NCBI GenBank assembly: GCA_014584305.1
Contig: JACTND010000235.1
Span: forward strand, 1 to 61,946
Origin: Planctomycetota bacterium
GTDB taxonomy: Bacteria > Planctomycetota > Planctomycetia > Pirellulales > Pirellulaceae
DNA: 61,946 bases
Direction of reading: 5' to 3'
Under the pieces are notes generated by a model. That model saw only the letters and a program-made list of their open reading frames with translations. It did no database searches and was not told the DNA's origin. Below, piece after piece: positions 12,779-39,575 of this stretch (position 1 is its first letter; each line of letters opens with the position of its first letter). A program made the translations under genes and the position numbers.

Positions 12779-12851
12779 GGTCAGGTAGCTCAGTTGGTAG
12801 AGCAATGGACTGAAAATCCATGTGTCGCCGGTTCGATCCCGGCCCTGACCA
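12779..12851 (+). tRNA. tRNA-Phe(GAA): tRNA-Phe (anticodon GAA)
   Basis: Hand-folded 73-nt cloverleaf: acceptor GGTCAGG/CCTGACC, D stem GCTC/GAGC, anticodon stem ATGGA/TCCAT with loop CTGAAAA, 5-nt variable loop GTGTC, T stem GCCGG/CCGGC with loop TTCGATC, discriminator A. No encoded CCA. Confidence 0.93.
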
Positions 12852-14201: not shown

Positions 14202-14510
14202 TCAGCGAGGCAAATTCGGTCGACGCCGTTTGTTCTTTTCTTCAATCCAGGCTTTGAGTGCCTCGACCGAATAGCGAACGCATTTTCCAATTCGAAGAAA
14301 CGGGATCCGGGCTTCGTTTCTGAGCGTCCAAAGGGTACGGCGGCTGATCCCCAAGGCCTTAGCAGCCTCCCCTTCGGTCAACAAAAGTTTTTCTGGGTCG
14401 TTGAGTGACGGAACGTTAGGCGTGTTCGAACCTATCGGCTCGTGCAGCAAACGGTTTGAGTTTTGAATTGTCATGTGATGACTCCAATTGAATTTGAGTT
14501 CGGGTCTCAA
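14202..14510 (-). CDS. xis: excisionase/AlpA-type helix-turn-helix DNA-binding protein
   Basis: 102 aa. LTEGEAAKALGISRRTLWTLRNEARIPFLRIGKCVRYSVEALKAWIEE is a typical MerR-superfamily excisionase HTH. Probable true start is the ATG at 14474 (MTIQNS...). Confidence 0.7.
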   Translation of the reverse strand: MRPELKFNWSHHMTIQNSNRLLHEPIGSNTPNVPSLNDPEKLLLTEGEAAKALGISRRTLWTLRNEARIPFLRIGKCVRYSVEALKAWIEEKNKRRRPNLPR

Positions 14511-23130: not shown

Positions 23131-23667
23131 TTGCCCATGATCCTTAAGCAATTCGAATTGCGGCAACTGGCACCAGAATACCGAATCATTCGTGAGCATT
23201 ATTCGGTCAAGGCAGCGGCTGCGGCAGGTCGCACGACTGCGTTTTTGAGCCATAGCCACAAAGACAAGACCCTTGCCGAGGGCGTGCAAGTCTATCTCAA
23301 AAGGCAAGGGTGGGATGTTTATATCGATTGGCTGGATGAGGAAATGCCTGAGGCGATCAGTGCCGCGACAGCGACGAACTTACAAGCAAAGATAATGAAT
23401 ACAGAGTTTTTCTTGTTCCTCGCCACGCAGAACTCATGCAAAGTGTCACGTTGGTGCCCGTGGGAAATCGGATACGCAGATGGCAAGAAGGAAAGATCCA
23501 AGATCTTGATTATTCCAACGCAAGATGATAACGGGTACCAGTACGGCAGCGAATACCTCGGCCTCTATCGGCGCATCGAGAAGGCTACACCCGAAGGTGG
23601 CGGTGAATTTGCGGCTGCGGCGATTCCGCCATCAGGTAAAGGCGTCTGGATTAGGGCGCTGGGATAA
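23131..23667 (+). CDS. thsB: TIR-domain protein (Thoeris ThsB-type)
   Basis: 178 aa. TTAFLSHSHKDKTLAEGVQVYLKRQGWDVYIDWLD..., WCPWEIGYADG (conserved Glu). The ORF-track start is TTG at 23131; the ATG at 23137 is more likely. Confidence 0.75.
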   Translation: MPMILKQFELRQLAPEYRIIREHYSVKAAAAAGRTTAFLSHSHKDKTLAEGVQVYLKRQGWDVYIDWLDEEMPEAISAATATNLQAKIMNTEFFLFLATQNSCKVSRWCPWEIGYADGKKERSKILIIPTQDDNGYQYGSEYLGLYRRIEKATPEGGGEFAAAAIPPSGKGVWIRALG

Positions 23668-23692
23668 TGTAACGTTTCTATAAAGATGAACC

Positions 23693-25141
23693 ATGACCCC
23701 ACCGCCAAACGATGAAGACGTACTCGTCCGCGAGTTCACGAAGGAGCTGCACAATCACAACGCTGCCGTTTTCGTAGGCGCAGGATTGTCGGTTGGTGCA
23801 GGATATGTTGACTGGCTCGGGTTGCTGCGCGACCTAATTGTCGACTTGGGCTTGGATCCAAATGCAGAAACCGATTTGGTTACGTTGGCTCAGTACCATT
23901 GCAATAAAGTCGGAGGCAGGGGAAGGCTCACGCAAGTTGTATTCGACAAGTTCAGGGAAACAAATGAGCCAACGATCAACCACCGACTACTATCCCGACT
24001 ACCAATTCATACGTATTGGACCACCAATTACGACAAGCTTCTAGAAACCGCGTTGACCCAAGAGAAAAGGATCGCGGATGTGAAGTACACGGCGAATCAT
24101 CTCGCGATAACGCGCCTCGATCGCGATGTTTACGTTTACAAGATGCATGGGGACATAGATCATCCGGCCGACGCCGTTTTGACAAGGGACGACTATGAGC
24201 AGTACTCGTTCAAGATGGCTCCATTTTTGTCAGCATTAAAAGGAAACCTAATTGAAAAGACGTTTCTGTTCCTCGGATTCAGTTTTACGGACCCGAATAT
24301 CGACTACATATTAAGTCGGGTTCGGATTCAATACGGGCAGAATCAACGAGTGCATTACGCAATTCAGAAGCGCGTTACGCAGAACGCGGGCGAGAGCGGC
24401 GAAGTATTTCAGCGGCGGCAGCTCAAGCAGGATTATTTCATCGAGGACTTGAAACGCTTTGGAATACAGACGGTCCTTGTTGATGATTACACCGACATCA
24501 CGAGAGTCTTGCGTCGCATCGAAAATCGCTTCCGCCGTGCTTCAATTTTTGTTTCGGGCTCGGCCCACGAGTACGGCGGGTTCGCAGATCCGAAAGAATT
24601 CTTGCACAATCTGGCGTATAGAATTGCGGAGGAAAAAAACCGCGTAATCACTGGCTTTGGCTTGGGTGTCGGTGACGCCGTTATCAATGGTGCGGTCAGC
24701 TGGCTTGATCAAGCTGGCAAAACCATTTCAGACGAGGACGTGATGCTTCGTCCGTTCCCGCAGTTTGCAACTGGTGGCACTAGTTTGCCAGATCGATGGG
24801 AAGCATATCGGAAACTGATGATTCAACACGCGGGAATTGCCGTGTTCGTGTTTGGTAACAAGATCGATCATTCAAGCGGAGTAATCGTAAGTGCAAATGG
24901 CATGCGGCGCGAGTTTGAGCTGTGTCTTGAAAGGGAGGTAAAGGTTTTGCCAATCGGGGCTACCGGCTATTTAGCGGAAGAGCTCTGGAATGACGTTAAC
25001 GCACGGTTCGACACATGTTTTCCGGGAGCCAGTGGCGCCTTTCGGAATAATTTTGGGTTGATAGGGAATCGGTCGACGCCAGCTGATCAATTGATTCGCG
25101 CGGTAGTCGAAATGATCCGGGAGTTACAAAGGGGGGAATGA
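23693..25141 (+). CDS. thsA: Thoeris ThsA: N-terminal SIR2 (NADase) plus C-terminal SLOG-like ligand-binding domain
   Basis: 482 aa. SIR2_2-type motifs AAVFVGAGLSVGAGYVDWLGLL, WTTNYDKLLE, YKMHGDIDHP, FLFLGFSFTDPNIDYIL. C-terminal Rossmann-like SLOG signature IFVSGSAHEYGG...VITGFGLGVGDAVINGA...AGIAVFVFGNK. Confidence 0.8.
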   Translation: MTPPPNDEDVLVREFTKELHNHNAAVFVGAGLSVGAGYVDWLGLLRDLIVDLGLDPNAETDLVTLAQYHCNKVGGRGRLTQVVFDKFRETNEPTINHRLLSRLPIHTYWTTNYDKLLETALTQEKRIADVKYTANHLAITRLDRDVYVYKMHGDIDHPADAVLTRDDYEQYSFKMAPFLSALKGNLIEKTFLFLGFSFTDPNIDYILSRVRIQYGQNQRVHYAIQKRVTQNAGESGEVFQRRQLKQDYFIEDLKRFGIQTVLVDDYTDITRVLRRIENRFRRASIFVSGSAHEYGGFADPKEFLHNLAYRIAEEKNRVITGFGLGVGDAVINGAVSWLDQAGKTISDEDVMLRPFPQFATGGTSLPDRWEAYRKLMIQHAGIAVFVFGNKIDHSSGVIVSANGMRREFELCLEREVKVLPIGATGYLAEELWNDVNARFDTCFPGASGAFRNNFGLIGNRSTPADQLIRAVVEMIRELQRGE

Positions 25142-25716
25142 TGGCAAAACGTGTTTACTTTGCATTCCATTATAAGGACGTCGCGGAATTTCGTGCTAAC
25201 GTAATTCGCCAACACGGGGCCTTGCAATCATCGGATAAGTCTGGTTTCTTCGATTGGTCGATCTGGGAGGAGGCAAAGAAGCAGAGCACAATGGCTCTCA
25301 AGAGAATGATCAATCAAGAGTTGGAGGGCACATCGGTGACCGCCGTGTTAATCGGATCGGAGACTTGGTTTAGGCCATGGGTGCGTTACGAGATCTTCAA
25401 GAGTCTCGAGCGCGGCAATAAGCTGTTGGGAATCCACATTAACGGAATAAAGGGAAGAGACGGCCTGACCAAGGTGATTGGGCCTAATCCTTTCGATTTT
25501 TTGGCGGTCAAGCCTTCTCGAAATGGGAACGCTGAATGCTTGCAATGTGACGGTAAGACTTGGGCTGGGTTCAGTGAGGTCGAACCCTTTAGCTTCAATC
25601 ATTTTGACCTCCGGCAACATCCAAATGGGATCAAGTTGTCTGCGTTTAATGGCATTAGCGTATACGATTGGGTTCGCGACGACGGTTTCAATCGGTTTCG
25701 GTATTGGATTCAGTGA
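25138..25716 (+). CDS. thsB: DUF1863-type TIR-like protein (second ThsB)
   Basis: 192 aa. VYFAFHYKDVAEFRANVIRQHG..., SVTAVLIGSETWFRPWVRYEIFKSLERGNKLLGIHINGIK. Its ATG overlaps the thsA stop (ATGA). Confidence 0.7.
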   Translation: MMAKRVYFAFHYKDVAEFRANVIRQHGALQSSDKSGFFDWSIWEEAKKQSTMALKRMINQELEGTSVTAVLIGSETWFRPWVRYEIFKSLERGNKLLGIHINGIKGRDGLTKVIGPNPFDFLAVKPSRNGNAECLQCDGKTWAGFSEVEPFSFNHFDLRQHPNGIKLSAFNGISVYDWVRDDGFNRFRYWIQ

Positions 25717-28172: not shown

Positions 28173-30305
28173 ATGGCACGGGATTACAAAAGAACCTCCG
28201 CTGAAGAGATCCGAAATAGCCAACGGCGGTCGGCGCTTACCGGAATTGGCCTGGCTATCCTTTGCACCCTGGCGTTAGCAGCGAGTCCGATGGGAGCAGT
28301 TATTGATCCCGGCTGGCTCTACGCGCTGGGAACCTTGCCAATGATTGCCGTCGCTAATGGAGCAAGCGTTCTAACGAGAGAAAGGTGGGTCGAGGTTCAC
28401 CGTCGGCGTGAGGTGGCACGAAGGTTCGGAAAGCCGGTATTGGGCGAGCCACCCGATCGCGGCTGCTTCCAGGAGGTCATGAACCAACTACGGGCCGAGG
28501 GCAAAACCATGATCGACCGGTACCTGGTAGGTTTTGAGTTAGCAACTGGGAAACCACTATGGGTTAGCGACGAGGACATGTGCAGCCATGGTTGCGTGTT
28601 CGCGAAAACAGGGGTGGGTAAGACGCTGATGCTGGAAGCCTTGATGTTCCAGCAAATGCTTCGTGGCCGTGCGAGCGGCTGCACGTTCATCGATGCCAAA
28701 CGTGATTCAGGCACGTTGGCACAGATCATCCTGATGGCTCAGGTGGCGGGCCGAATTGAAGACTTGATCGTGATTGACCCGTTCGATCCCGTGCACGCCT
28801 ATAACTTCGTGCTGACCAATCAACGCTCGGACGTGAAGGCTCGAAAAGTGTTGCGTGCTGGCTTGCCGCCCACTTCGGATCAGAGCACCACCAAGCACTA
28901 CGATCGATTGGCCGCCGACGCCGTGGCCCGCATGGTGCGGGCCTTGGAAAGCATCGGATTGTCCTGGTCGATTCACGACGTGGCGGTGGCTCTCTCCGCA
29001 TTCAATCTGTCCTATCCGCATCTGAAGAAAATGCTGCAAAGCATCGGAGCTACGCAAGCGTTGATCGAACTTGGGCACCTTGCGTCAAGTTACCGGGGGA
29101 CACGCGGTGCTATTGACGCTGCCAAACTGACGGACAATTTGCGCGGAATCGCTTCAGAGCTTCATGCCATTTCCGGCAGTTCCATGGGACCAGTGTTCTG
29201 TGCAAACTATACGGATCTCGTCCTTACGGATGCGATGCTGAGGGGGAAGATTGTTTACTTCATGCTCCCACGGCTGGAAGAGGCCGAGGGTGCGGCGCGC
29301 ATGGTCAAACTGTTTCGTGAGGACCTGGAAGTCTCAATCGGCGAAATCACATCGTCTCGACACCATCGGTTGGAGGATCCGCATCTGGTCATCATCGACG
29401 AGGGATCGTCGACCTTTGGTCCAACCTGGGCCAATTTGTTTGAACTGGCTAGAAAGGGTCGATTTGCGCTTTTTTTTGGCGCTCAATCGACGGGAGGATT
29501 GACCGACACTTCACTTGGTCTCAGTGAGGCGTTCTTTGAACGCGTTATGGCCAACGTCGGCCTGAAAGTGATGATGCGAGTTGGCGACAATCGCACCGCA
29601 CAAGAAATGGCCGAGTGGTTCGGAAAAGTGTCAACGGTCCGAACGTCTTTTGGGATGGGAGTTTCGAAGAACACTTCTGGTCGAGCGTTGCACGGCGGGA
29701 TGGATCCCCAAGCCAGATCTGGCGACGGCGAGTCGCGAACCGTTAACGTCGCAGAAGATGAGGACTATATCGTGAGCCCGGAGGAACTGAAGCACGAGAT
29801 GTCCAGCGAAAAGGGACTGGCGTGGTTTGACCTTGGGGACGGGAATATCGTGAAGGGCCGGGCAGTCTGGTTCAATGCCGAGATTCCCAGCAACTGGGAT
29901 GGCCGCGAGCACTTGGTTCGCCTGGAGCGTCGCGAAACAGATGAACTCGCGCTCGCGGCCTGGGTTGATCAACAAATCCTGTTGGAAGAAGCCGCAGCCA
30001 CGGCATACACGGGCAGGGAGCCACAGGCAGTGCAAGGAGAGGGAGTTAATCCAAATCGAAGTGATGGCGGAAGTCCGAAAGCTCCGGGAGGCGTGGACAC
30101 CACGTCCGACAAGTCTGAAAGCAAACCCTTCAAGATTGATACAAGCTTGAGCAAGCGAGTGTCTGGGGCTGTTCGTGAACTCCAGGCTGCCAGCCTTGCC
30201 GATTCATCGACGACCAAAAACGCAGAAAGGCAAAAGTTCAAGCCAGGCTCGATTCCCAAGGGTCGATTCCGGTTAGGTCGGTCAAAATCGATAGGCAGGG
30301 CATAG
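28173..30305 (+). CDS. second T4CP-like (TraD/VirD4/DotL-type, FtsK-HerA superfamily) membrane ATPase
   Basis: 710 aa. Two N-terminal TM helices. Walker A FAKTGVGKT, then TFIDAKRDSG...LIVIDPFDP...YNF (T4CP-like), Walker B HLVIIDEGSS. Charged low-complexity tail. Confidence 0.65.
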   Translation: MARDYKRTSAEEIRNSQRRSALTGIGLAILCTLALAASPMGAVIDPGWLYALGTLPMIAVANGASVLTRERWVEVHRRREVARRFGKPVLGEPPDRGCFQEVMNQLRAEGKTMIDRYLVGFELATGKPLWVSDEDMCSHGCVFAKTGVGKTLMLEALMFQQMLRGRASGCTFIDAKRDSGTLAQIILMAQVAGRIEDLIVIDPFDPVHAYNFVLTNQRSDVKARKVLRAGLPPTSDQSTTKHYDRLAADAVARMVRALESIGLSWSIHDVAVALSAFNLSYPHLKKMLQSIGATQALIELGHLASSYRGTRGAIDAAKLTDNLRGIASELHAISGSSMGPVFCANYTDLVLTDAMLRGKIVYFMLPRLEEAEGAARMVKLFREDLEVSIGEITSSRHHRLEDPHLVIIDEGSSTFGPTWANLFELARKGRFALFFGAQSTGGLTDTSLGLSEAFFERVMANVGLKVMMRVGDNRTAQEMAEWFGKVSTVRTSFGMGVSKNTSGRALHGGMDPQARSGDGESRTVNVAEDEDYIVSPEELKHEMSSEKGLAWFDLGDGNIVKGRAVWFNAEIPSNWDGREHLVRLERRETDELALAAWVDQQILLEEAAATAYTGREPQAVQGEGVNPNRSDGGSPKAPGGVDTTSDKSESKPFKIDTSLSKRVSGAVRELQAASLADSSTTKNAERQKFKPGSIPKGRFRLGRSKSIGRA

Positions 30306-30317
30306 GAATTCGAGAAC

Positions 30318-31292
30318 TCAAATGCGAATCCTTTCAACCTCATCCAAAGTGATTTCGTCGCTTGTCCGGTCGTAAAGCTTGGTGGTTCGAGGCGACTCAT
30401 GTGCGGCAATGGCTTGGGCGTTTTCGATGGTGCCTCCGTTTTCCAGGTAGGCCGTGATCCCCGTTGCTCGAAAAGTATGGCAGCCAATTCGAGCCTTGAT
30501 TCCCGCTGCTCGGGCACGGCGTCGGACCATTCGATAGGCATCATGCCGCGAGAGCGGCCGCGATGTTAATTGGCCAGCCTTCCCCTGCACACTCCGGAAG
30601 AGGGGAGCTTCCCGGTCAACGCCGATTCCAGCCGCTTGAATGTAGGCGTCGAGATATTCGACGACCTTGTGATGAGCCGGAACCTCGTGGTCTTTGCCTC
30701 CTTTTTCATGAAGCCGCAACGAATGTCGTTTTCCGATCTGCAAGTAGTCGCCGACTCGCATCTTGACCACGGCACTGACTCGGGCGAACGAGTAAATCAT
30801 CACCCCAATCAAAGCCCGGTCGCGCAGCCCGACCAACTGGTCGATTTTGATGCTCTCCAGCAACCTGCGGGCTTCGTCGGCCGTCAAAACCGGCGTCTTG
30901 CCACGTTTGACCACATATTTCGGTCCGCGAACCGACGAGGCCGGGTTCATCGGCAGGATTTGACCGACAACCAGCCAATCGAAACACATGCGGATCGCAG
31001 CCAGGTTCTGCTTTACGGTCGGCTTGGAATAATCGGCGCTAAGTTGTTCCACGTACGCCGCCACGATCATCGGCTCGATATCGAGCAATTCAATCCGCCG
31101 CTCATCGCACCAAGCAAAGAACTCGGTCAACGCCCGATGGTACGCTTCCCGGGTATTCCGGTTCCGAATGTTGGCCGTGAAGAACTCAAAGTACCGCTTG
31201 ACCGCCTTGGCCCCCGACTGGCGGATCAACCCCGGCGCCGCCATCGCCAGGCGGGTAGAAACAGCATTTGAAGTGGTCGGAAGTCGGCTCAA
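30318..31292 (-). CDS. tyrosine recombinase (XerC/D-like site-specific integrase)
   Basis: 324 aa. YFEFFTANIRNRNTREAYHRAL (SAM-like N-domain). Catalytic residues in LRDRAL, HEKGGKDHEVP, CHTFRATGIT, AHESPRTTKLY. TTG start at 31292; alternative ATG at MAAPGLIR. Confidence 0.8.
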   Translation of the reverse strand: MSRLPTTSNAVSTRLAMAAPGLIRQSGAKAVKRYFEFFTANIRNRNTREAYHRALTEFFAWCDERRIELLDIEPMIVAAYVEQLSADYSKPTVKQNLAAIRMCFDWLVVGQILPMNPASSVRGPKYVVKRGKTPVLTADEARRLLESIKIDQLVGLRDRALIGVMIYSFARVSAVVKMRVGDYLQIGKRHSLRLHEKGGKDHEVPAHHKVVEYLDAYIQAAGIGVDREAPLFRSVQGKAGQLTSRPLSRHDAYRMVRRRARAAGIKARIGCHTFRATGITAYLENGGTIENAQAIAAHESPRTTKLYDRTSDEITLDEVERIRI

Positions 31293-31306: not shown

Positions 31307-31338
31307 TCGTGAACCATAACGTCCTTTAGGGTTCACGA
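31307..31338. promoter_or_regulatory. 9-bp inverted repeat (TCGTGAACC N14 GGTTCACGA) just upstream of the recombinase start
   Basis: Read directly from the sequence. It sits 15-46 nt upstream of the TTG start at 31292. Candidate operator or recombinase-binding site. Confidence 0.4.
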
Positions 31339-31431: not shown

Positions 31432-31719
31432 TCATCGTCGGCGTTTGGCGTCGTTGACTGCTTCACTAATCGCCGACTCCATGTCGGAATCTGTAACGCC
31501 CCTGTCGCAAGCATTTCCATGGGCCTTTTCGAGAATGGCGTTAATGATCTGCTTGGCGCTCCTTTTGTTTCCGGGCGTCGGCAACCGGCTTGGAAAGTAA
31601 CCCGAAATGAAAACGCGTTGGCCTTTGCTTACAGGCTTGTCGAACAAACGTTCCAAGGCCGCGCGGTCGACTGCCGAAAGCTCCTCTACCCTGATGTCGT
31701 TAAAGAGTTGTCTTTCCAT
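31432..31719 (-). CDS. hypothetical small protein
   Basis: 95-aa ORF with a plausible composition (MERQLFNDIRVEELSAVDRAALERLFDKP...). No recognised motif. Confidence 0.4.
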   Translation of the reverse strand: MERQLFNDIRVEELSAVDRAALERLFDKPVSKGQRVFISGYFPSRLPTPGNKRSAKQIINAILEKAHGNACDRGVTDSDMESAISEAVNDAKRRR

Positions 31720-31797
31720 GGCCGGATTTTAGCAGGATCCGGTCGGAAACTCACGGCAATTCGAGTTTCGCAATCGGGGAATCACCGTCTGGGAAAT

Positions 31798-31868
31798 CGC
31801 CAACAGGTCACGAGGCAGGCTAAATCCGCCTCAAGGGGCTTGGTACCGATGGAGCCCCGCTATTGGCG
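31798..31868. repeat. structured ~70-nt repeat, copy A (three-helix junction)
   Basis: CGCCAACAGGTCACGAGGCAGGCTAAATCCGCCTCAAGGGGCTTGGTACCGATGGAGCCCCGCTATTGGCG. Shares its fold and junction sequence with copies at 33312-33390 and 39487-39561. Confidence 0.7.
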
Positions 31869-31937
31869 AAAAAGAGAGCGAACAATCGACCGCTCTGCGG
31901 CGGTTTCCAGCCATGATGCTTGGCTAAAACGTCATGC

Positions 31938-31966
31938 TTGACAAATATGTCACGTTATCGTATGAT
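31938..31966 (+). promoter_or_regulatory. sigma70-like promoter (TTGACA - 17 nt - TATGAT) for the 31986 operon
   Basis: -35 TTGACA at 31938-31943, 17-nt spacer, -10 TATGAT at 31961-31966. AAGGA Shine-Dalgarno immediately before the ATG at 31986. Confidence 0.45.
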
Positions 31967-31985
31967 TGTTGTCGAGGATTAAGGA

Positions 31986-32525
31986 ATGGTGCCACAGTTT
32001 GACGAAAACGGCGTGTTGCCTCCGGGTGATTACCCGCTGACGCTCGACCAGCTTCGGGAATCCTTGTTAGTGGAAGGATCACAACTCTCCTCGCATTGGG
32101 ATCGCGACTGGCGTTTGGCTTTGGTCGAAAACCTGTCGGTAATGTGTCGGCAGCTCTGGCAAGTTGGCATCGTGGAGATATTCGTCAACGGGTCGTTCGT
32201 GGAAGACAAAGATCATCCCAATGACATCGACGGCTACTTCGTTTGTGATTTTCGGCGCCTTGCCAGCGGCGACTTGCAACGCGAGTTGAACGTGCTCGAT
32301 CCGCACAAGATCTGGACCTGGGACCCTGCTTCACGGCGGCCCTATCGTGGGTACCCCAAGAAGCAATTGCCCATGTGGCATATTTATCGCGTCGAGCTAT
32401 ATCCGCATTACGGCCAATCGTCTGGGATCCGCGACAAGTTTGGGCACGAGTTGGAATTTCCTTCCGCTTTTCGGCAATCCCGCCGGGACGGAAAGCCCAA
32501 AGGAATCGTGCAAATCGTGAGGTGA
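31986..32525 (+). CDS. minimal nucleotidyltransferase-fold protein (DUF6932-like)
   Basis: 179 aa. VPQFDENGVLPPGDYPLTLDQLRESL... and the NTase-like IFVNGSFVEDKDHPNDIDGYF motif (GS...D.D). Confidence 0.55.
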   Translation: MVPQFDENGVLPPGDYPLTLDQLRESLLVEGSQLSSHWDRDWRLALVENLSVMCRQLWQVGIVEIFVNGSFVEDKDHPNDIDGYFVCDFRRLASGDLQRELNVLDPHKIWTWDPASRRPYRGYPKKQLPMWHIYRVELYPHYGQSSGIRDKFGHELEFPSAFRQSRRDGKPKGIVQIVR

Positions 32526-32528
32526 TTT

Positions 32529-32990
32529 ATGATTAAGAGCGAAACAGAGTATCAACAAGCCGTTGAGCGAATTAAGGATGAGGCGCAGCGAATCAAGGCA
32601 CAGCAAAAGGAGCTACAGGGGCTAGATCTATCCAAGGAGGAGATCAAGCGAGTCCTTGACCCGATGCGATCATTTCATGAGCAGCTCAAGGAAGAAGTCG
32701 ACAGTTATGAGAAGCTGAAACGCGGCGAATTTGAGGAAGTCCGCAACTTTGAAGGGATGGGCCGATTGTTGGTCGCCTTGCGAATCGCTCAAGGACTTTC
32801 TCAGCGTGAACTGGCCGAGCGACTAAACGTACACGAGTCTCAAGTCTCCCGCGATGAACGGAACGAGTACCACGGTATCTCGGTCGATCGTATCAAGCGA
32901 ATCCTCGACGCTCTGGGTGCGGAGGTTCGTACATCAGTCGTTACTTTTGGCGAAAGCGTCGCCACCGGCCGCGAGCCCGTTTCGACTTAA
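32529..32990 (+). CDS. XRE-family helix-turn-helix protein with N-terminal coiled coil
   Basis: 153 aa. LRIAQGLSQRELAERLNVHESQVSRDERNEYHGISVDRIKRILDALG. Starts 3 nt after the preceding stop. Confidence 0.7.
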   Translation: MIKSETEYQQAVERIKDEAQRIKAQQKELQGLDLSKEEIKRVLDPMRSFHEQLKEEVDSYEKLKRGEFEEVRNFEGMGRLLVALRIAQGLSQRELAERLNVHESQVSRDERNEYHGISVDRIKRILDALGAEVRTSVVTFGESVATGREPVST

Positions 32991-33023
32991 TTGAGTCGGC
33001 TCGCTGGGGACAGGATGTGTTAG

Positions 33024-33239
33024 TCACTCCTCAGGCGGGCCCGACCTCTCCTGTGCAGCGTCGTCGGCAATTGGGTACATTCCCAAACGACAAAGCAGCC
33101 CACCTACGCTGATTGAGGGGTACCGATCCTCCTCTGCAGCAACGCGCCGCAGCCAGTCTTCGCTGGGCACGAGATTGATTTCTTTTGGATCCGGGTCGCT
33201 TTTCTCGTATGTCATGTTACAGCCAATTATGCTTTGCAA
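33024..33239 (-). CDS. hypothetical small protein (weak call)
   Basis: 71-aa ORF with no motif. It may be spurious. Confidence 0.25.
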   Translation of the reverse strand: MQSIIGCNMTYEKSDPDPKEINLVPSEDWLRRVAAEEDRYPSISVGGLLCRLGMYPIADDAAQERSGPPEE

Positions 33240-33311
33240 TTGGCGGCAAAGTCAATTCTGATTGTAATCGAAACGGTCCGAAGGGCCGCAGTGTAGCCTC
33301 GAACTGTTCAG

Positions 33312-33390
33312 CCACTTTTCGCCAACAGGTTACGAGGCAGGCAAAGGCCTCCTCAAGGGGCTTTGAATCGGTGGAGCCCCACTGGCAAAG
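33312..33390. repeat. structured ~70-nt repeat, copy B
   Basis: ..CTTTTCGCCAACAGGTTACGAGGCAGGCAAAGGCCTCCTCAAGGGGCTTTGAATCGGTGGAGCCCCACTGGCAAAG.. The helices are retained with different sequence. Confidence 0.65.
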
Positions 33391-33517
33391 AAACCAATAC
33401 GCTGTTAGTCAGGCACGCACGATTCGAGAATGCGGACTGCTCGCTTTGGTTGATGCGAACGCTGCGAGTTGCAGCGTTGGCGAATCGACAGCGATGGCAT
33501 CGCCTCAGCGAAAAAGT

Positions 33518-33545
33518 TTGCCGATTCTTACACTCTCGCTAGAAT
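33518..33545 (+). promoter_or_regulatory. possible promoter (TTGCCG - 16 nt - TAGAAT) for the 33573 gene
   Basis: Read directly from the sequence. The -10 element ends 28 nt before the ATG. Confidence 0.3.
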
Positions 33546-33572
33546 GACCACGTCTTTAGATTTAGTAACGGA

Positions 33573-34238
33573 GTGACCATGTTCGACGAAATATTGCGCG
33601 AATTGCGACGGATGCCAAAAACATTCACTATTCCAATTGAATTGCCTCTTGATGAAAAGGGCTACCTTGACCGAGCGTGTCATCAGCGTGAATGTACATG
33701 CCAATTCAAGGTCATGGAGCAGGATTGGATTAACAAAGTGAGAGATGAAGCCGCGTTTTGCCCCAAATGCGGCGGAGCATCCCCGGCAGACGAATTCAAT
33801 ACGGAAGCCCAGCAGAGATTCATCAAAAAGGTGGGCGAGAGGTTTGCGGCTGAACAACTCGACAAGACCATGAAAAGGGCAATTAGGCGGACACGACCGC
33901 AGAAGGTTAGCGCGGGCCTTTTCAACATTGAAATGACTCTGTCGTATACATCCGAGCGGGTCCAAAGGCCGATCGCCCACAAAGCCAATGAGGTACTGCG
34001 GCAAGATTTTGAGTGTTCGGAATGCAATTGTAGGTATTCGACGATTGGCGCTGGATATTTCTGCCCGGCGTGCGGGCACAACTCGGCAGAGCGAGACTTT
34101 GCACAGACGGTGGAAACGACGCTGAGGGCAGTTGACTTGCTGGGGCAAATCAAGGCAACGGTTATTGAGCATGCCGATGCTGATGTCGCCGAAGATCTTC
34201 AGCAGCAAATGATGAAAGTCAAATCGAAAATCTCGTGA
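33573..34238 (+). CDS. double zinc-ribbon protein, function unknown
   Basis: 221 aa. CHQRECTC...CPKCGG and CSECNC...CPACGH Cys4 pairs. GGAG 9 nt upstream of the ATG. The 33528..34208 minus ORF is its shadow. Confidence 0.6.
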   Translation: MTMFDEILRELRRMPKTFTIPIELPLDEKGYLDRACHQRECTCQFKVMEQDWINKVRDEAAFCPKCGGASPADEFNTEAQQRFIKKVGERFAAEQLDKTMKRAIRRTRPQKVSAGLFNIEMTLSYTSERVQRPIAHKANEVLRQDFECSECNCRYSTIGAGYFCPACGHNSAERDFAQTVETTLRAVDLLGQIKATVIEHADADVAEDLQQQMMKVKSKIS

Positions 34239-34600
34239 CGGCGCTGCAGCGAGTAACGGAATCGATGTACGAAAAACTCCCCGGCATCTCAGCTGCGCCG
34301 TTCAATGTGTTCCAGCGGATGGATGAAGCTTCTGAGCTTTGGCAATCCGCGATTGGGCGAGGTTATGGCGACATTCTCAACGCGACCGAATTTGTGTTTT
34401 TGAAGAAGATGGTGCAACGCCGTCATAAACTTGGGCACTCGCAGGGAATGATTGATAGTAGGTATGTTCGAAATACCGGAGATTCCAATTACCAACCGGG
34501 GCAGCGGCTTGTGGTCAACCAGGCGGATGTTCGTGAACTCGCGAAAGTAGCGACAAAGCTGGTGGCCGGACTTATGCAACACCGGTTAGAAACTCAATGA
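34235..34600 (+). CDS. hypothetical protein; either GTGA-coupled to, or frameshifted from, the preceding zinc-ribbon gene
   Basis: 121 aa with a GTG start overlapping the upstream TGA. Its frame is already open from 34184 (…NDESQIENLVTALQRVTE). Confidence 0.5.
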   Translation: MTALQRVTESMYEKLPGISAAPFNVFQRMDEASELWQSAIGRGYGDILNATEFVFLKKMVQRRHKLGHSQGMIDSRYVRNTGDSNYQPGQRLVVNQADVRELAKVATKLVAGLMQHRLETQ

Positions 34601-34608
34601 GGTTTCGG

Positions 34609-34643
34609 TCAATGCTGGCCGTCGATCTGAGCAGCCAGCATTG
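34609..34643. terminator. hairpin between convergent genes (11-bp stem TCAATGCTGGC / GCCAGCATTGA, 13-nt loop)
   Basis: Read directly from the sequence. Lies between the stop at 34600 (+) and the stop at 34655 (-). Confidence 0.5.
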
Positions 34644-34654
34644 AGCCGAATACT

Positions 34655-35122
34655 TCAGAAGGATTCGTTGTTGAGCACGGAATGGGCGCCAGCTGCGGTG
34701 ACGATCAAAGAGTCGATTAGCGTAATTCCCATCAGCTCACCGGCCTTGGAAAGGCGTTGCGTAATGTCCAGATCTTCGCGGCTTGGCGTCAAGGATCCCG
34801 ACGGGTGATTGTGAGCCACGATAAAAGCACGGGCCCCGACAAGGACGGCACGTTGAAACACTTCCCGGGGATGAACGAGCGACGAATTCGCAGTGCCGGT
34901 CGAGATCACAGAGAAGCTCGCGACTTGATTTGCTCCATCCAGATATAACGCGACAAAATGCTCGCGGCTGTTGTCCGGCAGTACGTCCCGAATAAACTGC
35001 ACGGCATCGCCAGGGGCAGTCACTTTGAAAGGCGACTCCGTGGACGGCCGATAATTGACGATTACCTCGCGAATGAATTTGTCGGTAAAGCCAGGGTTTG
35101 AGTTCTGAAGTACTTGAAACAT
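34655..35122 (-). CDS. radC: RadC-like JAB/MPN domain protein
   Basis: JAB motif FIVAHNHPSGSLTPSREDLDIT. I place the start at the ATG at 35122, preceded by GGAGGA, rather than at the ORF-track start 35269. Confidence 0.8.
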   Translation of the reverse strand: MFQVLQNSNPGFTDKFIREVIVNYRPSTESPFKVTAPGDAVQFIRDVLPDNSREHFVALYLDGANQVASFSVISTGTANSSLVHPREVFQRAVLVGARAFIVAHNHPSGSLTPSREDLDITQRLSKAGELMGITLIDSLIVTAAGAHSVLNNESF

Positions 35123-35210
35123 GTTCCTCCATGTCTGAAATAGGCAATTTGCCAAGCCTCGACTGGAAGCGAATTCTTCCAAGTCGCCCTTGGCTGGGAG
35201 GAACGTCCAG

Positions 35211-35295
35211 CACGGCAAGTCAAGGTGGAGCCTCGCCGCAGGCGAGCAGCAGCCGCTAAGCCCAGTCAAAATATGCGGCGGACCTTGACGCCGTG
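35211..35295 (-). ncRNA. structured element upstream of radC (copy 1; candidate radC-motif RNA or ssDNA promoter)
   Basis: Long closing helix CACGGCaaGTCAAGGT / ACCTTGACgCCGTG enclosing the hairpin CTCGCC-tgc-GGCGAG (minus-strand sense). Homologous to 37957-38048. Ends 88 nt before the radC ATG. Confidence 0.5.
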
Positions 35296-35328
35296 CTATG
35301 ATCGAAAGACAAGCAAGACCGAGTTAAC

Positions 35329-36195
35329 TTACGATAGCCGCTTTTTCAATTTGCGGACGACTCGTTTTGCAGGTTTGCCTTTAACCCCGGCTCGGTGATC
35401 TCGGACTGAAGCGGCGACCGCCAAAGTGTCATCAGTGAGTTTTCGATTGGGCCACGGACAGAGGTGCTTTTTCGACATTGGGCACTTTGAACAATTGGGC
35501 TCAGTTTCGAGGCAATAATTGCGACCCAGATTCCAAGCAGGCGAGTCCAGGAGTCCGGGAAACTCGGGGTTAAGCGAGCGGGCGAGATATGTGATCGAGT
35601 CAATTGATTCATTACGTTCCGAGAGGCCAAGACGCCAAAAAACCCGTCGCACCTGAACGTCGACGGAGATGTCTATCGAGAAGTAGTCAGAGAACGGGAC
35701 TTTTAGGTTGCGGGCCAAAATATTGGCTGCCATCGTGGCGATCTTTGGGCCGACGCCTCGAAACTGCAGGAACCGATATACGACTTGAGCACTCGAAGGC
35801 TTGTTGGTCCAGATTCGCGAAGCATCGCCTCCCCAATTCGATCCGATTAGTTGGATGGCGTCGTAGAAATTCCTGCTCATGTCCTCGGCGAAACGATGCA
35901 GTGAGCGCGGCTTCGTCATCAATTTGTAGATGCGAGCCTGCGAGAGCGCCGAGAGTGTGGCAAAAGAAAAGTCTCCAAGCACTCGTGCGAACTCGTAAGG
36001 TATGATCCATGCCCGCTCGGCTTTGACCTGGCGATCCATGATGCAACCAATCACAAAAGCGTGCGGGAAACGTTCAAGATCGTTCAATAACGCATCCGCA
36101 TCAGCGTTGCCGGTAAACTCGTGAAACGCGCTGGAGGAATCTAGCAGTCGTTTCCCCTGCGCAACGAGCTCTTTGACGATTGCTTCCTTGGTCAT
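35329..36195 (-). CDS. HhH-GPD superfamily (endonuclease III-like) DNA glycosylase-like protein
   Basis: 288 aa. Helix-hairpin-helix FLQFRGVGPKIATMAANIL. C-terminal Cys cluster CLETEPNCSKCPMSKKHLC resembles the EndoIII 4Fe-4S loop. Confidence 0.55.
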   Translation of the reverse strand: MTKEAIVKELVAQGKRLLDSSSAFHEFTGNADADALLNDLERFPHAFVIGCIMDRQVKAERAWIIPYEFARVLGDFSFATLSALSQARIYKLMTKPRSLHRFAEDMSRNFYDAIQLIGSNWGGDASRIWTNKPSSAQVVYRFLQFRGVGPKIATMAANILARNLKVPFSDYFSIDISVDVQVRRVFWRLGLSERNESIDSITYLARSLNPEFPGLLDSPAWNLGRNYCLETEPNCSKCPMSKKHLCPWPNRKLTDDTLAVAASVRDHRAGVKGKPAKRVVRKLKKRLS

Positions 36196-36236
36196 ACGTA
36201 GATCCTCTCATTCCGAGCAGTCTGCTTTAACTCTAC

Positions 36237-36278
36237 AAAAAAATGAGGCCTTTGTGGCGTGCATGGAGCAAAGACCTC
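36237..36278 (-). terminator. rho-independent terminator on the minus strand
   Basis: Minus-strand GAGGTCTTTG-(14 nt)-CAAAGGCCTC followed by a run of seven T, 21 nt after the stop at 36299. Confidence 0.6.
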
Positions 36279-36298
36279 TTGGGAAAACCTCGGTTCGA

Positions 36299-36664
36299 TT
36301 ACCAGCGTCGACTTTTGCGACAGCAGGTGATCGAACAAAACAATTCTCCCATGTAACCGTACGTCTCATCCCCCACCCCCATCGGATAACCGCAGAATCC
36401 GCAGTTGCCCTCCTCGGTGATGTGGTTGATGCGGTACTTCTCCGGAAGCGGACCAGGGTCCGAACCGGTGATTGCCTGAAGCCAGTCGCGAACCGCGAGC
36501 GAATCAGTCAATCCAATTTCCCTCACGTTGCGAATCCGCTTTTGCGAAATCCCCAAGCGAAAAGAAAGTCCTTCAATGGTCACATGGTGCTTTCGCATCA
36601 GTCGTACCACGTCAGGGCCCGTGAACTTTGGAGACATGTTACTCAGGTTGCTTAGATCTGACAT
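36299..36664 (-). CDS. hypothetical protein with C-terminal Cys-rich (zinc-finger-like) segment
   Basis: Start placed at the ATG at 36664, preceded by GGAGG (ORF-track start is 36694). CGFCGYP...CSITCC. Confidence 0.5.
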   Translation of the reverse strand: MSDLSNLSNMSPKFTGPDVVRLMRKHHVTIEGLSFRLGISQKRIRNVREIGLTDSLAVRDWLQAITGSDPGPLPEKYRINHITEEGNCGFCGYPMGVGDETYGYMGELFCSITCCRKSRRW

Positions 36665-36675
36665 AACGCCTCCTT

Positions 36676-37068
36676 TCAAACGCAGAGATGGCAAGAACCG
36701 TGTTCCGCAGCCGTCTGAAAACGAATTGCCGGAACCTTTGCCAAAAGCTGCGAGTCGAATTCGTTGGCGTTAATCTGTTGGATCAGCGCCAATGCGCGAT
36801 CTTCGCTGCACCACGAGAACGTGATCGTCTCGACTTGAACGAGCAGATCGGACCGAGTGAAGGAACGAAGTACGGCGTATTCCTGAGCGCCGTCAGGACC
36901 TGTTGCATCGTTTGTATAGACGTAAGTTCCCAAACGAAACGCGGTGCAACCTGTCCAGGTTTGCTGAGTCAGCTTGTAAGCCAACGCCTCGGCCACAGCC
37001 ACATCAACGACTGACCAAAAGCGACTCCTATGCAACATGGGCCACCTCCTCGGATACGACGGACTCAA
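36676..37068 (-). CDS. hypothetical protein
   Basis: 130-aa ORF; a more likely start is the ATG at 37038 (MLHRSRFWSV...). Overlaps the ardC stop. No motif recognised. Confidence 0.45.
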   Translation of the reverse strand: MSPSYPRRWPMLHRSRFWSVVDVAVAEALAYKLTQQTWTGCTAFRLGTYVYTNDATGPDGAQEYAVLRSFTRSDLLVQVETITFSWCSEDRALALIQQINANEFDSQLLAKVPAIRFQTAAEHGSCHLCV

Positions 37069-37873
37069 GTTCCGTGATGATCTTGGCGGAGATGTCGCGA
37101 ATCAGCTCAAGCGATTGTGCCAAGAGCGGCAGATCCCCGTTCCAAAGTTGGATGTAATCGGACGAGGATTTCGTCGCGGGCAATCCAACCGAACGGCAGA
37201 CCACAAAAGCCACCGCCTCGGCTTCCGTTTCGCGCATGGCCTTGGTCGTTTCCGACCGACGGTCACCGCGATGCAAAAGCTCATGAGCCAATTCGTGGGC
37301 CAAAACGGAAAACGTTTGGGCCTTGGGCAATTCAGCCAGGATGGAGATTCGGTTGCCGTGGGACAATCCGAATGCACCACCCAGATCGGTCGCATAGTTC
37401 AACTCGATTCCCTTGCCGCGAATGATGGCCTCCAGCCGCTCGACTTTGTCGCCGGGATCACCCTCGACAGAAGAAAGCGTTGGAAGCTCAGCTCCATCGG
37501 TTTGGGAAACATCGAACACGCAGACGACTTTGAAGCCCTTGATATAAGGAGCTTCGCGGTCGTCCGGTTCCTCATCTTGACTTGCGGCCTGGTCCTTCTT
37601 CTTGGAACGAACCATCAGGGGGGCCAAAATGCCAATCCCCTTTTCGCCCTTCTTCACGAAGCGATTCAGTTCTTTCCAGCGATTAAAACCAGCCACCATC
37701 GTGGCATTCGGAAACTGCAAGGCGATGAGCATGCAGTTGCCGAACGAGTACTTGTGAAACCGGGAGCAAAAGTCCAGGTACTTCACCAGCTCATCGCTGC
37801 GGCCATTTTGCAACGCTTCGGCAAGTTCCTTCAGCGCTGCGTCACTCTTTTTGAGAGCTTCATCTCGATTCAT
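37028..37873 (-). CDS. ardC: ArdC-like antirestriction protein (ssDNA-binding N-domain plus zincin metalloprotease)
   Basis: FHKYSFGNCMLIALQFPNATMVAGFNRWKELNRFVKKGEKGIGILAP (DUF1738-like) and HELAHELLH. Start placed at the ATG at 37873, preceded by GGAGGA (ORF-track start is 37966). Confidence 0.8.
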   Translation of the reverse strand: MNRDEALKKSDAALKELAEALQNGRSDELVKYLDFCSRFHKYSFGNCMLIALQFPNATMVAGFNRWKELNRFVKKGEKGIGILAPLMVRSKKKDQAASQDEEPDDREAPYIKGFKVVCVFDVSQTDGAELPTLSSVEGDPGDKVERLEAIIRGKGIELNYATDLGGAFGLSHGNRISILAELPKAQTFSVLAHELAHELLHRGDRRSETTKAMRETEAEAVAFVVCRSVGLPATKSSSDYIQLWNGDLPLLAQSLELIRDISAKIITELESVVSEEVAHVA

Positions 37874-37956
37874 ACAATCCTCCTTGGTACGAGCCGACTG
37901 TCTCGACCTTGAAAGGGGGTAAAAGAAGAAAACCCGTCGGCGGTCAGATCGCGACC

Positions 37957-38048
37957 AACGCGGCAAGTCAATGTGGAGCCTCGCCTGAGAAGGCGAGCAG
38001 CAGCCGCTACGACCCAGAGATGGGAGCGGCGGACATTGACGCCGCGTT
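37957..38048 (-). ncRNA. structured element upstream of ardC (copy 2 of the radC-upstream element)
   Basis: Closing helix AACGCGGCaaGTCAATGT / ACATTGACgCCGCGTT. Shared core GTGGAGCCTCGCC..GGCGAGCAGCAGCCGCT. Ends 83 nt before the ardC ATG. Confidence 0.5.
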
Positions 38049-38405
38049 AAGCTCGGACAAGCCGATGACGGGAAGTAAAGAAAACCATTGGATGCACGCC
38101 ACTTGCCTCCGTTGGCAGCGGCTGCATTTCGGAGCCGGTCAACGGAAGCCAGTGGGGTTGTGTCTTCTACCCGACCAGATTGTCGAAAAAGGTGAGAGAC
38201 TGGTGATGCGTGCAGTCATTATTGGGAAAACCCCTTCTCACCAAGAAAAACTTCAACTTCGTTCGAAAGACACCCAGAGGGCAAGTCAATTTCGAAGCCA
38301 AGTTGAATCAAACGCCAATTGGCCAAATGCAATCGAGGGAAGTCATCGGGGACCATCAACCTTCGAATGCAAATGGAGAAAAGGCGCTAAATGTGGCAGA
38401 AGCCA

Positions 38406-38702
38406 CTACCGGGAACGAGGCGACTCACGCTTTCGCGAGCCGTTTTTGTTGCGTTCTCCATCTTCGGGTTCATCGCGATCGTTGGCATGCAGGAAAATCC
38501 AAGTGTGTGCCAGGTCGGCTACCTTGGAAACCAGCGGCAACTCATCGCGACTAAACGAGTTCGACGTCTCCCAACCCTCCTCGGTCTTGTAGATCCGAGT
38601 GATTTGGACGCTGAACCAGCTACCCGAGTCGTTTTCATTACGCCAGATCGCAGCTTTCACCCGACCCATGCGAATTTCGTGAACAGGACGATCCTGATTC
38701 AT
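38406..38702 (-). CDS. possible PC4/YdbC-like ssDNA-binding protein
   Basis: 98 aa. VKAAIWRNENDSGSWFSVQITRIYKTEEGWETSNSFSRDELPLVSKVADLAH matches my recollection of the bacterial PC4-like pattern (IW.N....G..y..v.i.r.Yk...G.W..t.sf...dL). Confidence 0.4.
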   Translation of the reverse strand: MNQDRPVHEIRMGRVKAAIWRNENDSGSWFSVQITRIYKTEEGWETSNSFSRDELPLVSKVADLAHTWIFLHANDRDEPEDGERNKNGSRKRESPRSR

Positions 38703-38988
38703 ACAGCACCATTTACCTTTCTATGGGCTAAAAGTCAGAACAAACCTTTTCACGCATCACCGTCTCTCTCGGTCAGTGCTGCCAATTGCGCGTTGGTGCA
38801 AGATTTGGCAACTACTCACCGGGGGAGATGTGGCGATTTCGTTTCGTGGCATCCGGAGCCTCAAAACGGTCGGAAAGCCGATCGTGCCACGATTTGGATC
38901 GCTAATCAAATGTGCGCGGTGCCGCCAATGTGGCTCGCCCCGGGTCAAGCACTAATCAAGATCAACGATGCGAAGGGAATGGTGATTT

Positions 38989-39480
38989 ATGGGAATCTTG
39001 TATCTGAGGAAGGCATCTGACCTTTTGGTTTCAGGCTGCCGCTGTGGGGACGGGCGAATCACCTATCCACCACAAATGGGTTGCCCGTGGTGCGGGTGCG
39101 GTTGGCTTTTTTCGTGCATCACGTGCCGCATAGCCTTTACGATTGCGGAGGCCGTCGAGCTTGATACGAGCTGGGAGGAGCTGGCTCGCCAGGATCTCTG
39201 GGGGTTTAAGGGCGTCAAAGCGTCGAAGAGTGAGTGCGCCCGCTGGGCGATGTCCATGCGGGCTTTACTTCGCGACATTTCCCTTGGCCCCTTGTATGTC
39301 ATCCTGGATGGTCGCGTTTTTCCCGTGACAGCACAGAACATCGAATTTCATGGAATTCGCACCAAGCACACGTTGGCCTCCATGCCGCAGGCAGCAGCGT
39401 TGCAAGACCCGTCCATACTCGATCGCGTACTTCGCAACCCATCGTACTGGGACTCCGAGCTCGCCAAGAGTTATGGCTGA
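38989..39480 (+). CDS. hypothetical Cys-rich protein
   Basis: 163 aa. CRCGDG...CPWCGCGWLFSCITC N-terminal cluster. Composition is consistent with a real gene. Confidence 0.5.
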   Translation: MGILYLRKASDLLVSGCRCGDGRITYPPQMGCPWCGCGWLFSCITCRIAFTIAEAVELDTSWEELARQDLWGFKGVKASKSECARWAMSMRALLRDISLGPLYVILDGRVFPVTAQNIEFHGIRTKHTLASMPQAAALQDPSILDRVLRNPSYWDSELAKSYG

Positions 39481-39486
39481 GACGCG

Positions 39487-39561
39487 ATTGCCAACAGGTC
39501 ACATGGCGGGTAGCGCCCGCCTTTAGGGGCTTGGTACCGGTGGAGCCCCGCTATTGGCAAT
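39487..39561. repeat. structured ~70-nt repeat, copy C
   Basis: ATTGCCAACAGGTCACATGGCGGGTAGCGCCCGCCTTTAGGGGCTTGGTACCGGTGGAGCCCCGCTATTGGCAAT. Lies between two convergent stops (39480 and 39576). Confidence 0.7.
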
Positions 39562-39575
39562 CTGGTGTGATCGAG

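Follow-up and report, generated by a model that had tools for sequence, protein, structure and literature searches.

A covarying three-way-junction element of anti-restriction gene modules in Pirellulales, next to a dif-like locus

The stretch of DNA analysed here, which we call the window, is the 61,946-nt contig JACTND010000235.1 of a Pirellulaceae genome assembly (GCA_014584305.1). It contains three copies of an element of approximately 75 nt, which we name E1, set among genes for anti-restriction and recombination proteins. In minus-strand order, the region comprises a Ser/Thr kinase gene, E1-C (39486–39562, minus), a gene for a conserved 98-amino-acid (98-aa) protein (38406–38702, minus), an ArdC-like anti-restriction gene with ArdcN and M78 peptidase domains (37028–37966, minus), an HhH-GPD gene, a gene for a RadC-like JAB protein (34655–35269, minus), E1-B (33315–33390, minus), an HTH/DUF6932 gene pair on the opposite strand, E1-A (31797–31869, minus), an open reading frame (ORF) of 95 aa (31432–31719, minus) and the gene for an Xer-like tyrosine recombinase (30318–31292, minus). 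An earlier note on this DNA had reported three copies in the same orientation; all three do lie on one strand, and its coordinates were exact to 1–3 nt.

A covariance model search of the window returned exactly these three copies (E = 1e-20 to 1e-26), with 96 bits each for A and C and 80 bits for B. The next match in the window had E > 0.7, and further decayed copies or core fragments were represented there by matches at chance level only. Common to the three copies are CCAACAGGTYAC, the hairpin GGGGCT-12 nt-AGCCCC and CTATTGG; the helix-3 pattern AGGGGCTTNGNAYCGRTGGAGCCCC occurs three times, against 0.00 expected from shuffles. In E1-A, which lies between the start of the 95-aa ORF (31719, minus) and that of the DUF6932 gene (31986, plus), the parts in plus-strand coordinates are helix 1 at 31797–31806 and 31860–31869, a junction at 31807–31811, helix 2 at 31812–31832 and helix 3, with a 12-nt loop, at 31835–31858. 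Helix 1 of E1-C starts 13 nt past the stop codon of the kinase gene on the minus strand. In E1-B, a decayed copy, small deletions affect one arm of helix 1, whereas helices 2 and 3 have stayed whole; its score of 69.8 bits in a second model search is the lowest for a full-length copy. A hairpin with a U-run was also seen directly 5′ of E1-A on the minus strand (31875–31896).

Relatives of E1 and covariation of its fold

Relatives were sought on several scales, and loci from other genomes or contigs that were compared with the window are designated by L-numbers (L003–L029). A strict pattern, run against 185,579 representative genomes, gave three true matches in two genomes, a Pirellulaceae (L003) and a Planctomycetaceae (L006) metagenome-assembled genome, and four further matches that were due to chance. 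A scan of metagenomes for the helix-3 hairpin gave two matches on one contig (L007, L008), which is 95% identical to the window at 34.6–40.5 kb and differs in cargo. Homologues of the recombinase and the 98-aa protein led to additional loci, which were searched with two covariance models. This search of relatives, which the earlier note had called for, raised the count to 19 full copies plus a partial one (L017 14763–14824) on at least ten distinct Pirellulales contigs. Scans of viral contigs for E1 were empty, as was a BLAST search of a plasmid database for E1 and for R2, a second element described below. E1 is not dispersed in the manner of REP or MITE repeats, with three copies within 8 kb of the 62 kb, a statement made with no complete genome scanned with the model. 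The load is 1–3 copies per element, in intergenic DNA, and all 19–20 copies are on the coding strand of the ArdC, RadC, 98-aa and recombinase genes.

The earlier note had proposed a three-way junction, and each copy does fold in this way, as RNA or DNA and on either strand; the folding energies of the three window copies are 1–3.8 standard deviations below those of shuffles. Its reading of covariation within the window stood in part. In helix 1, copies A and C differ by one true compensatory pair, which is thin, and the arm of B is damaged. Helix 2, described there as rebuilt from different sequence each time, shares a GGC/GCC core within the window, with few substitutions or a register shift, and it is among the wider relatives that its sequence differs nearly everywhere. 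Decisive covariation came from the 16–17 extra copies in other genomes, which show that all three helices covary. The outer 3–5 pairs of helix 1 covary among copies, and in diverged copies the helix-3 stem reads GUUGC/GCAAC, GUCC/GGAC or GGGCU/AGCCC in place of GGGGCU/AGCCCC, whereas its loop of 12–13 nt, CCAYCGGUNCCAA, is kept.

Covariation was evaluated in an alignment of 20 copies with 25 pairs, using as controls 500 shuffles and alignments in which the partner was slid by 1–3 columns. Standard pairs occupied 91.6% of the cells, compared with 80% in the shuffles, and 16 of the 25 pairs had changed on both sides. The covariation score was 0.307, a value reached by none of the 500 shuffles (0.115 ± 0.012), and the slid partners gave scores of at most 0.096. 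Because the covariation across the 20 copies exceeds that of all shuffled and slid controls, we conclude from the alignment that the E1 fold is under selection as a single strand. The earlier note had likewise favoured a selected fold over a plain repeat, and the repeat without covariation that it had named as the contrary outcome is removed by the multi-genome alignment.

The conserved parts are unevenly distributed over the fold. The closing helix has 12 bp, of which the inner 7 bp (CCAAUAG/CUGUUGG) are fixed in sequence, an invariant U·G included. It leads to one hairpin with the conserved 12–13-nt loop and to another that is conserved as structure only. The junction strands read C/U, NNAA and GUGACC on the minus strand and GGUCAC, UYAA and G on the plus strand; the strand of 6–7 nt containing GUGACC is itself conserved. 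In all, about 30 nucleotides of E1 are highly conserved in a multi-helix junction. An all-against-all column scan of the alignment gave no supported pseudoknot or tertiary pair. One candidate pseudoknot, pairing GGU of the helix-3 loop with ACC of the junction, fits some copies and fails others, and was rejected with the column scan.

The fold had been drawn on the plus strand in the earlier note, and this is probably wrong. What appears on the plus strand as a C/A 'mismatch' of helix 1 corresponds, in 19 of the 20 copies, to a minus-strand U·G wobble, and the rest of helix 1 has eight G·U/U·G cells against two A·C cells. The minus strand is therefore the better paired of the two, and these wobble counts indicate that the functional strand is probably the window minus strand.

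Comparison with Rfam 15 at the gathering threshold yielded one tRNA only in the whole window, and at E up to 10 E1-A and E1-C matched sX11 at 15.7 bits (cutoff 70) or nothing. The earlier remark that E1 resembles no known ribozyme or riboswitch thus holds after a direct comparison. E1 is a new family within a loosely known kind, that of structured elements on mobile DNA with undefined function. The closest parallel in setting is STAXI (RF01728; Weinberg et al. 2010), a repeated element near genes for single-strand-binding, anti-restriction and XerDC-type integrase proteins, for which the authors were undecided between RNA and single-stranded DNA (PMC2864571). Both are conserved structured repeats in the same gene niche of mobile DNA. 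However, STAXI is a small tandem pseudoknot of Enterobacteria, whereas E1 is a single three-way junction of ~75 nt in Pirellulales, with copies 1.5–6 kb apart, and the STAXI Rfam model does not match E1 even at E up to 10. The radC RNA motif (RF01754) shares with E1 its neighbours, namely radC, anti-restriction, integrase and DNA methyltransferase genes, but is an element of the 5′ untranslated region (5′-UTR) in Proteobacteria; E1 has no fixed relation to start codons, and it is R2 that resembles the radC motif here.

Placement of E1, the dif-like site and the leader elements

E1 is always intergenic, and its position relative to genes varies. In at least nine copies, helix 1 starts 3–150 nt past a co-oriented stop codon; the preceding gene encodes the kinase (window, L006, L017), RadC (L006, L019, L023, L020), a ParB-like protein (L011) or an ATPase (L017). 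Other copies are in divergent intergenic regions (A, B, L015 and the copy at 9076 in L020). An R2 leader follows three of the copies after 18–93 nt, too short a gap to hold a promoter (L020, 9076–9156 followed by R2 at 9174; L017, 16742 followed by 16925; L006, 6482 followed by 6639). Because the distance from E1 to the next start codon ranges from about 75 to more than 700 nt, and because many copies stand just 3′ of a stop codon, E1 is not a 5′-UTR riboswitch at a fixed distance, in agreement with what the earlier note had concluded from the window.

Orthologues of E1-C occupy the same position in L006, L017, L015, L009 and L007. E1 is optional: it is found upstream of the 98-aa gene in five loci, whereas L019, L020 and L023 lack it at that site and have E1 after radC instead; in L019, from Pirellulaceae SH449, this copy is at 12865–12950. 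The block of 98-aa, ArdC, (RadC), HTH/DUF6932 and recombinase genes recurs in L006, L009, L017, L019, L020 and L023 with variable cargo, and the same block adjoins RepA/ParA genes in L011–L013. The placement of E1 at module junctions, another claim of the earlier note, was upheld by the different order of modules around E1 in the window and in L006 and by an insertion of cargo at the helix-1 end of copy C. The order is C-[ArdC...RadC]-B-[HTH/DUF6932]-A-[95 aa] in the window and 6a-[ArdC...RadC]-6c-[95 aa]-6b-[R2...HTH/DUF6932] in L006, where 6a, 6b and 6c are E1 copies; the homologue of the 95-aa ORF, which is downstream of E1-A in the window, follows 6c. Units of one gene flanked by E1 also occur, as E1-95aa-E1 in L006 and E1-RadC-E1 in L020. 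Flanking homology breaks exactly at the foot of helix 1. The insertion at copy C (38990–39478) is ~490 nt long, carries a plus-strand ORF of 163 aa, abuts the 3′ end of E1-C in its minus orientation and is present in the window and L007 only. Homology with L006, L017 and L015 stops after ...CCTGTTGGCAA and resumes near a promoter-like block upstream of the 98-aa gene, and the alignment shows no second E1 on the far side of the insertion. Two minor observations concern other copies. In L008, at 170–200, a stray CGCCAATAG, which corresponds to the 5′ arm of helix 1 and is preceded by GTGACC, adjoins a complete E1 and may be the scar of a rearrangement at E1. In L006, GC hairpins precede copies 6b and 6c, as one does E1-A in the window.

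The recombinase gene next to the 95-aa ORF encodes an Xer-like enzyme and not an IntI, as judged from profile scores and a structure match. The XerD model gives 130 bits, whereas the IntI model TIGR02249 gives 55.9 bits where its cutoff demands 265. Among solved structures, XerD (1a0p) is the best relative; the alignment to it is continuous (269 versus 263 residues) without an insertion of ~20 aa, and a match to IntI4 covers residues 253–312 only. The protein is 67–85% identical across Pirellulales genera. Beside the gene, the inverted repeat that the earlier note had marked at 31307–31338 is real: it is a conventional dif-like site of the enzyme itself, 28 bp long with 11+6+11 architecture, on the minus strand at 31309–31336 (GTGAACCCTAA-AGGACG-TTATGGTTCAC), and it is no part of E1. 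Immediately ahead of the gene, the aligned homologue loci all have an unchanged core CATAAAGGACGTTATG, save for one substitution (CCTAA) in the window copy. The site occurs once per locus and is also present in L028 and L029, two recombinase loci without E1. Single-recombinase Xer systems such as xerS/difSL resemble this arrangement of dif-like site and gene, and the conserved sequences suggest a single-recombinase Xer/dif system in Pirellulales. They also suggest that the DNA upstream of the dif-like site is an integration hotspot, occupied by ArdC/RadC modules in some genomes and by MT-A70/PcfJ/BREX neighbours in L028 and L029.

These results leave the link between E1 and the recombinase that the earlier note had drawn, if weakly, without support. 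An enzyme with its own conserved dif-like site has no need of E1 as a substrate, and the presence of that site at every homologue, together with the E1-free loci L028 and L029, weakens this candidate role. The half-site resemblance on which the link had been based (GGTCAC/GGTTCAC) amounts to six bases in a single-stranded junction and carries no evidential weight. E1 has neither an Xer/dif core, with 11-bp recombinase-binding arms on both sides of a 6–8-bp spacer, nor a folded dif mimic of the CTX-phage type with these parts along one stem; it presents a 12-bp stem and a 6-nt resemblance (GTGA-CC versus GTGAACC) only.

Two further structured elements belong to the same module. R2 is a three-way-junction element of ~100 nt, unrelated to E1, that is found in the window in the leaders of radC (35204–35302, minus; 106.6 bits) and of the ArdC-like gene (37952–38053, minus; 104 bits), and also in L006, L009, L017, L019, L020 and L023. 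In every case the gene downstream, which is ardC, radC or one other, starts 45–90 nt further on. In 16 copies, 95.1% of the cells are paired and 15 of 28 pairs have changed on both sides. No Rfam model matches R2, that of the radC motif included; by analogy of position, we take R2 to be a functional analogue of the proteobacterial radC motif. The second element, R3, is a leader hairpin that stands with the promoter-like block upstream of the 98-aa gene (38703–38960, minus; defined by alignments, the promoter being read from the sequence). The block has the form TTGATT-17-CA(A/C)(A/G)(A/C)T across loci and TTGATT-17-CACGAT in the window. In the leader, the hairpin CCUCGGUGAAC...CUGACCGAGAG, whose insert varies, precedes GAUCGUGAUGCGUG and the ribosome-binding-site region AAAGAAAGG; R3 is conserved and is present also in loci without E1. 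E1-C and its orthologues are upstream of the block, about 100 nt from the −35 box in L006, L017, L015 and L009.

The 98-aa protein belongs to no Pfam family. It has 557 homologues, and its gene always comes first in the ArdC module. The predicted structure is confident, with four strands and a long helix, and a comparison of the model with the PDB gave no significant match, with PUR-alpha and a PC4 homologue at E 0.6–1. Our guess from this model is that the protein might bind single-stranded DNA or RNA.

Candidate roles of E1

Our tentative interpretation, to which we assign a probability of about 0.45, is that E1 works as a sense-strand structured RNA recognised by a conserved factor. E1 would be a strand-specific structured element of ~75 nt belonging to an 'establishment/anti-restriction' mobile module of Pirellulales, located next to a dif/Xer locus and made up of the 98-aa protein, ArdC, RadC, the HTH/DUF6932 pair and variable cargo. 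Its active form would be a folded single strand with the same sense as the module mRNAs (window minus). It would be transcribed within intergenic regions or UTRs of module transcripts and would be recognised as RNA by a conserved protein or RNA-processing factor. In this way, it could define, protect or insulate transcript ends between cargo modules. The sense orientation of all copies and the wobble pairs on that strand are in line with an RNA, as is the likely transcription of E1 where it closely precedes R2, leaving no space for a promoter, or follows co-oriented stop codons. The junction itself has a 1-nt strand that permits coaxial stacking, an A-rich strand of 3–4 nt, and a long conserved strand that adjoins a wobble and invariant pairs, a pattern typical of RNA three-way junctions. 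Moreover, the module holds two covarying leaders, R2 and R3, at a fixed distance from the start codon.

Several observations weigh against an RNA. Copies A, L015, L009 and L020-9076 are intact, yet have no co-oriented gene within 300 nt upstream. The orthologous copies C, 6a, L017a, L015 and L009 lie some 100 nt ahead of the promoter-like block (TTGATT-17-CAAAAT) that serves the 98-aa gene, a position where sense transcription is doubtful if no co-oriented gene stands upstream; where the kinase is missing, E1 may therefore be untranscribed. Simple GC hairpins, one of them with a U-run, stand directly 5′ of some E1 copies. The helix-2 loops lack stable RNA tetraloops on the favoured strand, with a few GNRA loops on the other strand, and the free position relative to genes fits a DNA-level signal equally well.

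A signal in single-stranded DNA is nearly as likely as an RNA. Here E1 would be folded DNA on a displaced or transferred strand, either a single-strand-origin or single-strand-initiation (sso/ssi) type of signal to which primase or RNA polymerase is recruited, or a hairpin of the oriT kind that an HUH relaxase or Rep would nick. Its uniform orientation, its free position relative to genes and its 1–3 intergenic copies recall the repeated ssi/Frpo elements of plasmid leading regions, which are likewise orientation-specific, folded and present as few intergenic repeats near anti-restriction and ssb genes (PMC11541004). The neighbours ArdC, RadC and the dif/Xer locus are classic for the single-strand phase, E1 copies are intact where sense transcription is doubtful, and both the cargo insertion at the 3′ foot of helix 1 and the CGCCAATAG fragment in L008 would suit nicking or crossover immediately 3′ of the hairpin. 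Single-stranded DNA was also raised by the authors of STAXI for a similar gene neighbourhood (PMC2864571). However, Frpo elements are about 300 nt long with −35 and −10 boxes in a long stem, whereas E1 has 75 nt, a helix 1 of only 12 bp and no boxes; a promoter scan found no site within E1, and the lack of a −35/−10 pair argues against a promoter of the Frpo type. A sigma-70 promoter of this kind was also considered for E1 and R2 and rejected, as the TTGAC in the R2 stem has no −10 box at a workable spacing. Leading-region genes of proteobacterial plasmids use the transferred strand as template (PMC11541004), and if the same applied here, E1 would fold better on the wrong strand. In addition, the small islands share no conserved primase, relaxase or Rep, and several copies per element would be unusual for an oriT. 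We consider it unlikely that E1 represents a new catalytic or enzyme-targeted folded strand, punctuating mobile-element modules, whether a self-cleaving or processing RNA that cuts polycistronic transcripts at module borders or a DNA hairpin nicked just 3′ of helix 1. If the nicked hairpin did exist, E1-bounded cargo could be excised and re-inserted beside the dif/Xer hotspot, an integron-like shuffling without an integron integrase.

Somewhat less probable still, E1 could be a folded recombination site of the attC type or a miniature mobile element dependent on structure, and would in either case shuffle cargo modules beside the dif/Xer hotspot. The permutation of E1-bounded modules between the window and L006, the one-gene units flanked by E1, the presence or absence of E1 at orthologous sites, the divergence of flanks exactly at the helix-1 foot and the partial copy in L017 (14763–14824) would all be explained. 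E1 also resembles attC in being a folded single strand, conserved in structure more than in sequence, that is found at gene 3′ ends in one orientation, beside a tyrosine recombinase and among reshuffled cargo. It differs in lacking the RYYYAAC/GTTRRRY pair and an IntI, and in being a three-way junction with a sequence-conserved loop. The core reads YRCCAAC...ATTGGYR on the plus strand and ...CCAAT...GTTGG... on the minus strand, so that neither strand has both AAC and GTT, and the three E1 sites do not form an array, being spaced by 1.5 and 6.1 kb with multi-gene modules on two strands between them. On these grounds (an Xer-like recombinase, no AAC/GTT core, no cassette array), an integron was rejected, and the 'Rhodopirellula-1' motif (Weinberg 2010), which comprises attC-type AAC...GTT hairpins, is unrelated to E1 in sequence. 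The recombinase, moreover, has its own dif-like site and occurs without E1. The outermost pairs of helix 1 differ among copies yet are complementary within each, which argues against routine crossover between the helix-1 arms; the ~490-nt insertion at copy C has no second E1; and homologous recombination between direct repeats explains the permutations equally well. The very low copy number (three true strict-pattern matches in 2 of 185,579 representative genomes) also speaks against a mobile or recombining site. REP/BIME, ERIC and MITE repeats share with E1 the short, discrete, structured intergenic form and polymorphism in presence, but across a genome they occur in tens to hundreds of copies and in both orientations, whereas E1 has 1–3 copies in one orientation and in this module family only. 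Least probable is a stand-alone small RNA, such as an anti-defence decoy or regulator, or a self-cleaving or processing RNA. The roughly 30 highly conserved nucleotides in a multi-helix junction, the setting in an anti-defence mobile module and the location between cistrons would suit such an RNA. Against it are the lack of a conserved promoter upstream and a terminator downstream of E1, the absence of a match to any Rfam ribozyme model and the lack of supported pseudoknot or tertiary covariation; the order and sequences of the junction are also unlike the hammerhead core. A hammerhead had been tried as a candidate, in that the plus-strand junction lengths (7, 4 and 1) match in order, but the sequences do not, and there is no CUGANGA...GAAA core.

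The mobile elements of planctomycetes are almost unstudied, and here one module carries three covarying elements (E1, R2 and R3) around anti-restriction genes. E1 shares the niche of the unexplained STAXI and radC motifs of Proteobacteria, and would offer an independent system for studying the part that folded RNA or single-stranded DNA signals play when incoming mobile DNA becomes established. If E1 were a cleavage, nicking or priming site, it would explain the exchange of cargo in these islands and would offer a handle for genetic tools in Planctomycetota.

Other features of the window

The DUF6932 and HTH (Xre-type) gene pair between E1-A and E1-B (31986–32990, plus) is conserved on the opposite strand in L006, L017 and L023. 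It is preceded by a promoter near consensus (TTGACA-17-TATGAT, 31938–31966), and may serve the module as a regulatory or toxin–antitoxin-like pair. A perfect 10-bp hairpin (CAATGCTGGC...GCCAGCATTG, 34603–34648) stands in the gap where the radC and 121-aa genes converge.

Defence genes in the window stand on a tRNA-flanked island (tRNA, 12779–12851; integrase, 12790–14133). No type IV secretion system or relaxase was recognised on the window island, which does carry coupling-protein-like genes at 14507–16075 and 28173–30305. Its defence genes include a Thoeris system on the plus strand (23131–25716), composed of a ThsB TIR gene (23131–23667), a ThsA SIR2-STALD gene (23693–25141) and a further ThsB TIR gene (25138–25716), which adjoins a gene for a 1185-aa methylase of the Eco57I/MmeI type (17626–21183, plus).

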